Assembly: GCA_036378995.1 (NCBI GenBank)
Contig: DASUVJ010000032.1
Location: forward strand, 1 to 48,321
Direction: 5' to 3'
Length of the DNA: 48,321 bases
DNA from: Candidatus Saccharimonadales bacterium
GTDB lineage: Bacteria; Patescibacteriota; Saccharimonadia; Saccharimonadales; Saccharimonadaceae
This document shows positions 45,198 to 46,145 of the stretch, piece by piece. The stretch's first letter is position 1; the number at the start of each line of letters is the position of its first letter. A model generated the notes under the pieces. That model made no database searches. It was not told where the DNA came from and was given only the letters and a program-made list of their open reading frames with translations. The position numbers and the translations under genes are program-made.

Positions 45198-45226
45198 TTG
45201 ACTTAATGTTATTTATATTATAAAAT
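45198..45226 (+). promoter_or_regulatory. near-consensus promoter facing the island-4 cassette
   Basis: TTGACT (45198-45203) - 17 nt - TAAAAT (45221-45226). Confidence 0.65.
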
Positions 45227-45261
45227 ACTTCAGTTATTCCTTTTATAGTAGAGTAACGCTC

Positions 45262-45277
45262 CCTAACAAGCAACTAC
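45262..45277 (+). repeat. left arm of the inverted repeat bracketing island 4
   Basis: CCTAACAAGCAACTAC is complementary to 46033-46049 (GTAGTTGCTTAGTTAGG) apart from one bulged A. Confidence 0.8.
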
Positions 45278-45281
45278 AAAC

Positions 45282-45332
45282 GTAGATGAGAAACAGAGAT
45301 AGGTCCTCGACGTCTCCCTGTTTCTCATCTAC
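45282..45332 (+). promoter_or_regulatory. perfect 15-bp stem-loop in the island-4 5' leader
   Basis: GTAGATGAGAAACAG (45282-45296) pairs with CTGTTTCTCATCTAC (45318-45332). The loop is 21 nt. Confidence 0.8.
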
Positions 45333-45384
45333 GCGAACGGATTCGCCTAAGGCACTGCCTGCCGGATGAGAGAAGGGATCGGCC

Positions 45385-45957
45385 ATGTCGTCCGACCGCA
45401 CCACCCGCAAGAACTTCCTGCGCTTCGGTCACGGCACCGCCACCATCCAGGTGGACCACTGGCTGTCGGACCCGCAGGGCGAGCAGCCCTCCACCGACGA
45501 GGTCACCTGCTCCGTCGACCACCTCATGGGGTCGGTCGTCCAGGACACCTTCAAGGTGATGGGCCAGCTCAACCGCTCGGTCCAGGCCAAGGGTCTCGAC
45601 GAGGGCGACGTCGTCCACACCTCGACCCGCAGCATGACGATCGGCGGGGCCACCATGCGCGTCAAGGTGAGCCTGCACGTCTTCCGCAACGTGCCCAGCT
45701 ACATCCTCGCGACGGACGTCGACGAGGTCCTCAAGGGCGCCGTGCCCTGCATGATCCACCTGCTCGACAACTCCCTCCAGGACGAGGACGTGCTCAGCAG
45801 CCTGCCCCCGTTCCTGAGGGACCTGCTCGGTGACCTGCCGGACGGTGTCCGCGTCATGGGCTTCCCGAGCGACCTGTTCGGCGGGATGCCCGGCGATGGC
45901 TCGCGTGGCCACCAGGCCCACGGCTACGCCGGTGGCACCCCGGGCCAGTACCTGTAG
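45385..45957 (+). CDS. orphan 190-aa protein with actinobacterial-type codon usage
   Basis: GAGAGAAGGGA RBS lies 6 nt upstream. Nearly every third codon position is G/C. MSSDRTTRKNFLRFGHGTATIQVDHWLSDPQGEQ...; the C-terminus is Gly/Pro-rich (GGMPGDGSRGHQAHGYAGGTPGQYL). No family recognised. Confidence 0.7.
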   Translation: MSSDRTTRKNFLRFGHGTATIQVDHWLSDPQGEQPSTDEVTCSVDHLMGSVVQDTFKVMGQLNRSVQAKGLDEGDVVHTSTRSMTIGGATMRVKVSLHVFRNVPSYILATDVDEVLKGAVPCMIHLLDNSLQDEDVLSSLPPFLRDLLGDLPDGVRVMGFPSDLFGGMPGDGSRGHQAHGYAGGTPGQYL

Positions 45958-45987
45958 GCAGCCGCTGCCTCGGGTCGACTCTGCCTG

Positions 45988-46023
45988 CCGAGGCGCGAAC
46001 GCATCGTCGCGTTCGCGCCTCGG
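45988..46023 (+). terminator. perfect 15-bp GC-rich hairpin 3' of the island-4 ORF
   Basis: CCGAGGCGCGAACGC (45988-46002) - atcgtc - GCGTTCGCGCCTCGG (46009-46023). There is no U-run. Confidence 0.6.
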
Positions 46024-46032
46024 CGCGGCGAA

Positions 46033-46049
46033 GTAGTTGCTTAGTTAGG
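46033..46049 (+). repeat. right arm of the inverted repeat bracketing island 4
   Basis: GTAGTTGCTTAGTTAGG is the reverse complement of 45262-45277 with one extra A. Confidence 0.8.
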
Positions 46050-46051
46050 AC

Positions 46052-46102
46052 TGCTTCCATACGTGTGCACGTATGCTGATGAGTCCAAAAGGACGAAAAG
46101 CA
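46052..46102 (+). ncRNA. type III hammerhead self-cleaving ribozyme (minimal form)
   Basis: The element reads UGCUU-C|CAUACGU-GUGC-ACGUAUG-CUGAUGA-GUCC-AAAA-GGAC-GAA-AAGCA. The full invariant core is present. Stem I is 7 bp, stem II 4 bp and stem III 5 bp. Predicted cleavage is after C46057. Confidence 0.8.
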
Positions 46103-46135
46103 AAAAAATAACCCCATTTCCAGGGGTTATTTTTT
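46103..46135. terminator. bidirectional intrinsic terminator (tig on minus, island-4 transcript on plus)
   Basis: aaataacccc (46106-46115) pairs with ggggttattt (46123-46132), flanked by A7 and T runs. Confidence 0.85.
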
Positions 46136-46145
46136 GTATGTCACA

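Follow-up and report, generated by a model that had tools for sequence, protein, structure and literature searches.

The stretch of DNA analysed here, called the window in what follows, comprises 48,321 nucleotides of a Candidatus Saccharimonadales bacterium (GenBank assembly GCA_036378995.1, contig DASUVJ010000032.1, positions 1 to 48,321). Between the genes clpP and tig it contains a GC-rich island, the fourth of the window, which holds a single open reading frame (ORF) encoding 190 amino acids (aa). A first reading made from the letters of the window, with no database searches (the sequence-only reading), had described this island as a complete, self-contained expression cassette antisense to both neighbours, in which inverted repeats bracket the ORF and a self-cleaving ribozyme ends the unit. 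All the elements it had listed were found within 45198-46136, with small corrections only. The cassette does lie on the strand opposite to clpP and tig, diverging from the first and converging on the terminator of the second, but it overlaps neither coding sequence (CDS) and is antisense in orientation alone.

Read on the plus strand, the cassette begins with a sigma-70-like promoter recognized by a consensus scan (TTGACT-17-TAAAAT, 45198-45226). At the predicted 5' end of the transcript there is a hairpin, here named P0 (GTTATTC...GAGTAAC, 45233-45257), which is present in both the minimum-free-energy (MFE) and the centroid fold and had been overlooked. It is followed by the left inverted-repeat arm (IR-L, CCCTAACAAGCAACTAC, 45261-45277), which pairs with 46033-46049 in a long-range helix, and by a long leader hairpin (P1, 45281-45333) with 25-nt arms that are 88% complementary. 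The GGAG-rich ribosome-binding region GGATGAGAGAAGGGA (45364-45378) stands 6 nt 5' of the ATG of the CDS (45385-45957). Downstream of the CDS are a GC hairpin in the 3' untranslated region (45987-46024), the right inverted-repeat arm (IR-R, GTAGTTGCTTAGTTAGG, 46033-46049), which ends 8 nt 5' of the ribozyme cleavage site, and a type III hammerhead ribozyme (46052-46102) predicted to cut between C46057 and C46058. P1 and the 3' hairpin are both perfect, as first described, although each over 16 bp and not 15. The last element is a palindromic intrinsic-terminator hairpin common to the convergent tig gene (46103-46135); the scan called it on the minus strand, and its symmetry and the T-run after the hairpin suggest that it would also serve the plus strand. 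The GC content climbs from about 0.32 to 0.73 over the ORF. The cassette was recovered in at least 10 independent assemblies, which rules out an assembly chimera.

Most of these elements have counterparts at other loci (L numbers are our handles for loci and contigs). The consensus promoter match alone is weak, since three such sites were seen in 2 kb against 1.4 expected. At the same position L002, L207, L208, L211, L206 and L210 have TTGACT or TTGACA as their -35 box, with an A/T-rich -10-like hexamer downstream, and transcription would be expected to start from this promoter. A counterpart of P0 between promoter and left arm appears in the MFE folds of most of 11 other leaders; such a hairpin is clear in L206, L009, L095, L163, L176, L162 and L103, and is not seen as such in L002, L126 and L164. 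P1, with 21-25 bp, was found in all 10 leaders measured, and the ATGAGGAGAAGGG-like ribosome-binding motif is kept in related cassettes. The 3' GC hairpin shows compensatory changes in L002 and has counterparts in L207, L211, L209, L204 and L007.

The hammerhead ribozyme and the predicted pairing of the ends

The hammerhead has a full catalytic core, formed by CUGAUGA at 46076-46082 (C3-U4-G5-A6-N7-G8-A9) and GAA at 46095-46097 (G12-A13-A14). Stem I consists of 46058-63/46070-75, stem II of 46083-86/46091-94 and stem III of 46052-56/46098-102; stems I and II are closed by loops and stem III is open, as in type III hammerheads. The A15.1-U16.1 pair corresponds to A46098/U46056 and the G10.1-C11.1 pair to G46083/C46094, and position 17 is occupied by C46057, a non-G base.

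A covariance model specific for this class of hammerheads (R1) gives 75.6 bits to the copy in the window, where it detects no second one, and recognizes further copies in L207 (two), L210, L211, L060, L007, L013 and L014. The same 22-base core occurs on at least 120 metagenome contigs, the scan pattern consisting of the core and stem II, with stems I and III outside it; this pattern was found in none of 2.9 million viral contigs. In an alignment of 110 distinct copies the core is invariant except for N7, the UA pair is present in 110 of 110, and the loop sequences UGUGYR and AAAA are conserved. Moreover, 98.4% of the alignment cells are paired and 425 cells are altered on both sides. Ten of the 11 pairs of stems I and III covary, with a score of 0.694 compared with 0.164 for shuffles (none of 500 shuffles scored as high), and the pairing of these stems falls to 35-46% once the partners are slid. 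The full core, the size of the class and the stem covariation bear out the hammerhead named in the sequence-only reading as real; site-specific self-cleavage is predicted. At least six of the metagenome hammerhead loci can be attributed to Saccharibacteria because they carry genes 72-90% identical (protein level, tblastx) to housekeeping genes of this group. The class is placed in Saccharibacteria and on metagenome contigs, few of which can be assigned to a lineage.

The two repeat arms pair over 16 bp with one bulged A. In L002 this base is T, the kind of change expected of a base that is not paired. Folding the predicted processed transcript (45233-46057) gives an energy z-score of -6.5, and P0, the closing helix made by IR-L and IR-R, P1 and the 3' hairpin are all present in its MFE and centroid structures. 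Within the family of the encoded protein (window, L207, L211, L210, L209 and L009) the arms covary round a conserved ACAAGCAA core. The left and right arms read CCCUAAC-AAGCAACUAC and GUAGUUGCUU(A)GUUAGG in the window, CCUAUACAAGCAACC and GGUUGCUUGUAUAGG in L207, CUAACAAGCAAACCG and CGGUUUGCUUGUUGG in L211, CCCCUUACAAGUA and UACUUGUAAGGGG in L209, and UUAACAAGCAAACCAC and GUGGUUUGCUUGUUAA in L009. Across the whole class a perfect repeat of at least 10 nt, with one arm inside the 25 nt that precede the ribozyme and its partner 354-1141 nt upstream, was found in 18 of 62 loci, against 2 to 5 in three controls, and the paired arm sequences vary from locus to locus. The right arm ends 4-8 nt 5' of stem III, and its position in the window means that cleavage after C46057 would leave an 8-nt tail past the helix. 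The sequence-only reading had counted the arms as part of a mobile or foreign unit; however, they covary rather than keep one sequence, and the promoter, P0 and the hammerhead lie outside them and are nonetheless conserved together with them. The arms are for these reasons better regarded as an RNA helix than as transposon ends.

The same arrangement was recognized in approximately 25 loci that were inspected. A promoter, P0, IR-L, a P1 of 21-25 bp, one or two small hairpins and a ATGAGGAGAAGGG-like ribosome-binding region are followed by one ORF, a GC hairpin, IR-R and the hammerhead. In 25 hand-picked cassettes the distance from the stop codon to the hammerhead core is about 90-250 nt, most often 90-160. 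The cargo proteins have 60-400 aa and are of many kinds, many of them without any match, and in 50 of 65 cases the GC content at third codon positions (GC3) is higher in the cargo ORF than in genes of its contig (means 0.62 and 0.48). Among the recognizable cargoes is a family with a match to Pfam Tad4, the inhibitor of type I Thoeris (E 7.8e-30), and to PHROG 9822, in L164 (4097-5035, reverse strand), L126, L155 and L157. Others match an RNA-polymerase alpha-CTD-like protein, a DUF4419 protein and a GH113 glycoside hydrolase. Such an architecture is not a standard one for a bacterial gene, as had been noted at the outset, and island 4 is probably one copy of a recurrent class of ribozyme-terminated expression cassettes with paired ends.

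Some contigs carry two hammerhead cassettes near each other (L207, with a hammerhead at 1660-1714 on the minus strand, L195, L155, L188 and L140). In L195 the hammerhead lies directly 5' of the promoter of the next cassette, and in L188 a 240-nt junction containing the hammerhead is repeated 1142 nt apart. Tandem or circular units were rejected for L188, L155 and L140, and these two-cassette contigs look like small arrays rather than tandem repeats of unit length.

The encoded protein and its family

The GC content of the ORF at the three codon positions is 0.66, 0.42 and 0.96, a pattern that fits the annotated frame only. A minus-strand ORF of 198 aa (45325-45921) was rejected as a by-product of GC-rich sequence, because the codon-position pattern suits only the plus-strand frame. 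Within the aligned coding region all insertions and deletions relative to L002 are multiples of three. The ORF had been called an orphan, but an exhaustive profile search of 1.84 billion representative proteins recovered a family of 19 members; a word-index protein search finds just 2 to 4 relatives. For nine members a contig could be assigned, either read directly or through a match to a locus already fetched. Seven of them directly adjoin clpP and/or tig (L002/L003, L207, L208, L210, L211, L009 and L209), and the contigs of L206 and L204 show neither gene. All nine have the same cassette leader and/or the clpP/tig adjacency, with AT-richer flanks on their contigs. The arms and the hammerhead recur with the ORF as one unit in relatives, in agreement with the sequence-only reading.

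The protein evolves much faster than its neighbours. Its identity to the window copy is 25-61%, compared with 82-96% for Tig and 89-97% for ClpP. The proportion of synonymous differences (pS) is 0.19-0.48 for the ORF in seven of eight comparisons (0.70 for L210) and above 0.72 for clpP, and that of nonsynonymous differences (pN) is 0.25-0.55 against 0.02-0.09. The corresponding rate ratio, dN/dS, runs from about 0.5 to 1.8 for the ORF, with values of about 0.9 to 1.8 in all but one of the eight comparisons; for clpP it is 0.01 or dS is saturated. At the same time GC3 is 0.88-0.99 in nine of ten family members, whereas clpP on the same contigs has 0.47-0.60. The genes tuf and rpoB and the ribosomal-protein genes of the window have a GC3 of 0.38-0.59, which rules out that the extreme value is the translational optimum of the host. 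The CDS alone is not unusually structured (z = -1.77), and RNA structure fails for this reason to explain the extreme GC3. A GC3 of about 0.9-1.0 kept across deep divergence, next to own genes of about 0.5, challenges the usual equation of atypical composition with recent transfer, and no explanation offered accounts for it.

An AlphaFold2 model built with the family alignment has a predicted local distance difference test (pLDDT) score of 81.6 overall, with values above 90 for residues 1-137, which form the core. This core is modelled as a beta-hairpin and a long helix, repeated twice, and is followed by a putatively disordered tail (about 138 to 190), whose pLDDT is 65-69 at residues 131-150 and below 50 at 152-178. 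The protein has no match in Pfam, NCBIfam, PHROG, PADLOC or the sequences of the PDB, and a Foldseek search against the PDB and a viral structure library gave nothing at E 0.001 or better. The phage and plasmid collections contained no match to the protein, and the phage collection none to the cassette DNA.

The C terminus reads ...GGTPGQYL, and GQYL or GMYL ends 9 of the 19 family members. GQYL is a C-terminal interaction motif for the 20S proteasome, common to the otherwise unrelated proteins Mpa and Bpa, and bacterial proteasomes are confined to actinobacteria (PMC4254994, PMC6017811). Saccharibacteria grown in culture live as obligate epibionts on Actinobacteria (PMC7784981), and their epibiotic growth needs a type IV secretion system without relaxase (bioRxiv 10.1101/2025.01.22.634366). 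Like Bpa/PafE and Mpa/ARC, the cassette protein has an identical GQYL after a disordered linker, and its size is near that of Bpa (~170-190 aa). Unlike them, it comes from a lineage in which proteasomes are not known and evolves with a dN/dS of about 1. The activators assemble into rings on the 20S core particle and are encoded alongside prcA/prcB in the genome; the cassette protein was modelled as a monomer. It shows neither sequence nor predicted-fold likeness to Bpa or to the AAA+ ATPase Mpa; it is consequently not a member of either group and could at most mimic their docking motif.

The protein is most simply read as a fast-evolving effector that mimics the proteasome-docking tail of the host. 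A host-directed effector which docks on the proteasome of the actinobacterial host is the most likely role that we can propose, although this can be put forward only tentatively. Very few host-interaction factors are known in Saccharibacteria, and an exact proteasome-docking motif would make an effector that hijacks host proteolysis a testable proposal. Some observations tell against it. GQYL is a motif of four residues only, and no signal peptide or known secretion signal was found in the protein. In addition, the L002 sequence differs by 1 nt close to the 3' end of the ORF (L002 ~6590-6610, corresponding to 45888-45957 of the window), which shortens the L002/L003 protein to 173 aa, and by this frameshift the motif is lost from the L002 copy; the loss was seen in both JGI assemblies and may be real in the L002/L003 lineage. 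The constant place beside clpP could instead point to a partner within the cell, and docking on the bacterium's own ClpP or on another protease, about half as probable in our estimation, is the main alternative. A bolder variant, which we hold to be quite improbable, supposes that the end-paired mRNA itself is exported to the actinobacterial host and translated there, and that its GQYL product docks on the 20S proteasome and diverts proteolysis in favour of an epibiont dependent on amino acids. It is suggested by the codons (GC3 0.96) and the ribosome-binding site, which match high-GC Actinobacteria and not the Saccharibacterium's own genes. If it were true, the sister cassettes with a Tad4 homologue and the alpha-CTD-like protein would be further members of this repertoire directed at the host.

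Proposed working of the cassette and competing explanations

If island 4 is a ribozyme-terminated cassette with paired ends, the sigma-70-like promoter would start the mRNA at the 5'-terminal P0. After the ORF and the GC hairpin the type III hammerhead, with its very short stem III, would cut after C46057, shedding itself and the terminator borrowed from tig, so that the mRNA would end in a 2',3'-cyclic phosphate located 8 nt beyond IR-R. IR-R would pair with IR-L just past P0, so that both ends of the mature mRNA would be held in the closing helix. This helix may insulate the cassette from its genomic context and shield its transcript from end-dependent degradation. In L009 and L209, where IR-R is directly followed by a terminator of its own, the hammerhead would be unneeded.

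Several facts count against this reading or narrow it. The promoter, the transcript start and the cleavage are predictions from sequence. The Rfam model RF00008 (Hammerhead_3) gives the ribozyme 38.9 bits (E 1.2e-6), under its gathering score of 48.5, which is a threshold set by curators and not a biochemical requirement; at the gathering threshold Rfam has no match in the whole window, and at the E-value threshold no match in the leader was credible, only that to the hammerhead. A terminator already follows the hammerhead of the window, so that the benefit of cleavage is not obvious. In L009, L209 and L204 the hammerhead is replaced by a terminator placed right after IR-R or the 3' hairpin, and as a non-essential part it is facultative in the cassette family. 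A clear long-range repeat accompanies only about 30% of the class hammerheads. Since the repeat is found in this fraction and the hammerhead is missing from some cassettes of the family, helix and ribozyme are separable and neither is essential. Nor does this reading account for the extreme GC3. The sequence-only reading had named as one refutation that arms and hammerhead prove to be separate, unrelated features of the backbone; they do recur together in relatives, but not invariably. The replacement by a terminator fits the idea that a 3' end near the closing helix is what matters.

The best of the competing explanations is a latent mRNA similar to that of hok, which has in our view a small but real chance of being right. 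Here the closing helix and P1 would keep the mRNA stable and under translational control, the hammerhead would set the exact 3' end needed for an inert fold, and translation may be toggled by refolding, for instance after 3' trimming or host contact. The hok/sok mRNAs combine fold-back pairing of the 5' and 3' ends (fbi/tac) with a small toxin ORF and a cis-antisense RNA, and their 3' end is made by exonuclease trimming. The cassette would resemble them in its predicted end pairing, in leader hairpins able to hide the ribosome-binding site and in the importance of an exact 3' end. The 3' arm of P1 (45309-45333) is complementary to the cassette's own ribosome-binding region (45364-45378) over ~18 bp, with -22.7 kcal/mol compared with -14.9 for shuffled sequence. 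This complementarity is significant in 7 of 10 cassettes (similar in L206 and L009, weaker in four others) and suggests that P1 may act as a translational switch of the cassette. In the short variants L127, L143, L136 and L197, IR-L overlaps the ribosome-binding site or the start codon. However, the predicted MFE fold contains P1 and leaves most of the ribosome-binding site free, and 3 of the 10 cassettes lack the complementarity. Furthermore, there is no small toxin ORF (the ORF has 190 aa; a search for an antisense RNA was not made) and the cargo proteins, of 60-400 aa, are large and diverse. The 3' end of the cassette transcript would moreover be made by a ribozyme.

The sequence-only reading had favoured a mobile or foreign insertion, for which the evidence has turned out to be weak. 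As a mobile DNA cassette of the type of miniature inverted-repeat transposable elements (MITEs), mobile insertion cassettes or integrons, the arms would be terminal repeats recognized by a recombinase acting in trans and the ORF would be a passenger. A search with Tig gave 80 loci at species level, almost all of them labelled Candidatus Saccharibacteria or Saccharimonadia. Their tig-clpP spacers measure between 15 bp and 2760 bp; in many relatives the spacer is effectively empty, and related species have differing cargo. The homologous unit is inverted in L009, and cassettes of the class lie beside various housekeeping genes, sometimes in pairs. These findings would suit mobility. Against it, the covarying arms offer no kept sequence for a recombinase to bind, and the promoter, P0 and the hammerhead lie outside them and are conserved all the same. 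The left arm is present once in the 48-kb window, while MITEs have several copies per genome with kept terminal repeats at their ends. No target-site duplication is evident, the bases directly outside both arms showing no direct repeat when read by eye, not systematically. The ORFs listed for 42000-48321 include no recombinase or integrase gene, nor did a Pfam scan of the two neighbouring ORFs reveal one, and the phage and plasmid collections and the viral contigs gave no match. Integron cassettes are also different, since the element has its own promoter and its repeat brackets the ORF rather than forming a compact downstream attC. Wherever its flank could be read, the family stays bound to the clpP/tig locus down to 25% identity, and it keeps its GC3 across this divergence. 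Mobility is therefore improbable, and the cassette looks like an old, long-term resident of a hypervariable spacer, possibly swapped between lineages by recombination, and not like a recent mobile insertion.

Two further explanations have very little likelihood. The first is a plain gene acquired horizontally from an actinobacterium, with the hairpins, the repeats and the hammerhead being incidental. The GC3 of 0.96, the strong GGAG-type ribosome-binding site and the actinobacterial GQYL would agree with this, and three other GC-rich islands exist in the window. Nevertheless, the 1.84 billion proteins contained only the 19 relatives, of which those placed stand in the cassette context, and the present searches gave no close actinobacterial homologues. 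The RNA modules travel with the ORF. A recent import drifting towards the composition of its host is a poor fit because the extreme GC3 is kept down to 25% identity, and the distribution of the family does not fit such an import either. The second explanation is a processing stalk for an enzyme of the RNase III type, in which IR-L and IR-R would excise the ORF RNA in the manner of the stems round 16S rRNA and the hammerhead would be redundant. A covarying helix brackets the whole unit, and for hammerheads flanking single genes in bacteria and prophages a role in dividing long transcripts into mRNAs of gene length has been suggested (Perreault et al. 2011, PMC3088659). In the cassette, however, the promoter lies directly upstream, hence there is no long precursor to process. 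Typical RNase III substrates are also longer than this helix of 11-17 bp.

An integrated viroid-like, retrozyme-like or Obelisk-like hammerhead replicon is the least credible of all, for although a type III hammerhead with an ORF of ~200 aa in ~0.8 kb is superficially Obelisk-like and some contigs have two hammerheads ~1.1-1.2 kb apart, the unit has a single hammerhead (one in the window), the double-hammerhead contigs are not whole-unit tandems, a rod-like or viroid-like fold was rejected on the z-score of the CDS, and the cassette is encoded in DNA at a fixed chromosomal locus with its own promoter.

Some of the parts of the ribozyme-terminated cassette are familiar from known systems. The hammerheads described by Perreault et al. 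share with it a canonical core and an intergenic position by one gene of variable identity. The cassette class differs in being of type III, with conserved UGUGYR and AAAA loops, a closing helix, P0 and a structured leader, and in lying among Saccharibacteria housekeeping genes, off viral contigs, with cargo richer in GC3 than the host. Phage morons are autonomous promoter-gene-terminator units of deviant base composition. The cassette is likewise a self-contained, atypical unit between conserved genes, and at least one sister cassette carries a homologue of the anti-defence protein Tad4; unlike morons it resides on a bacterial chromosome, is GC-richer than its host and has conserved modules for RNA processing and end pairing. 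In engineered constructs synthetic ribozyme insulators and 3' hammerheads set the ends of transcripts. These also free a mature RNA from its flanking sequence, but the cassette is natural, conserved and end-paired. No paper linking hammerheads or other self-cleaving ribozymes to Saccharibacteria, Patescibacteria or the candidate phyla radiation was found in the literature, nor any report of the combined architecture or of the protein family. Single-gene hammerheads of prophages and fold-back mRNAs are known; the combination and its setting in Saccharibacteria appear to be new. What bacterial hammerheads do in nature is largely unproven. This class ties the ribozyme to a defined 3' end that would pair with the 5' end of a protein-coding mRNA, and its size, at least 120 examples, makes it practical to test this comparatively and biochemically. 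In the reduced genomes of Saccharibacteria such cassettes may form a platform dedicated to the expression of accessory genes that evolve fast.

Other features of the spacer and the window

Between the clpP start and the cassette promoter there is a perfect CIRCE operator (TTAGCACTC-N9-GAGTGCTAA, 45153-45181). A CIRCE 5' of clpP is kept in every Saccharibacteria tig-clpP spacer inspected, which implies that clpP is under a putative control of the HrcA type, one that may extend to the divergent cassette. Other tig-clpP spacers contain unrelated small ORFs, often GC-richer and with their own promoter and terminator. In the closely related L072, L075 and L083 the ORF in the spacer encodes a membrane protein. 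In L018 the spacer (5285-6044, 760 bp, GC content 0.54) is packed with hairpins, and no ORF in it is convincing; despite its look of a structured RNA, it gave no Rfam match at the gathering threshold.

The three other GC-rich islands of the window lie among ribosomal-protein, tuf and rpo genes, at 21131-21640 (minus strand), 22969-23325 (plus strand) and 35029-35361 (minus strand). Each contains one ORF, with a GC3 of 0.85, 0.89 and 0.79, respectively, and has its own promoter-like and terminator-like sites. They show no bracketing repeat and no hammerhead, and no match in Pfam, NCBIfam or PADLOC. The ORF of the first island (21131-21640) carries a lipoprotein-type signal peptide. Finally, for the plus-strand ORF at 43713-44537, between a TrmB-like regulator and clpP, the only matches are weak ones, to SAM-dependent methyltransferases (NCBIfam SCO2525 family, E 3e-6, far under the cut-off; Pfam NNMT/PNMT/TEMT, E 0.007).

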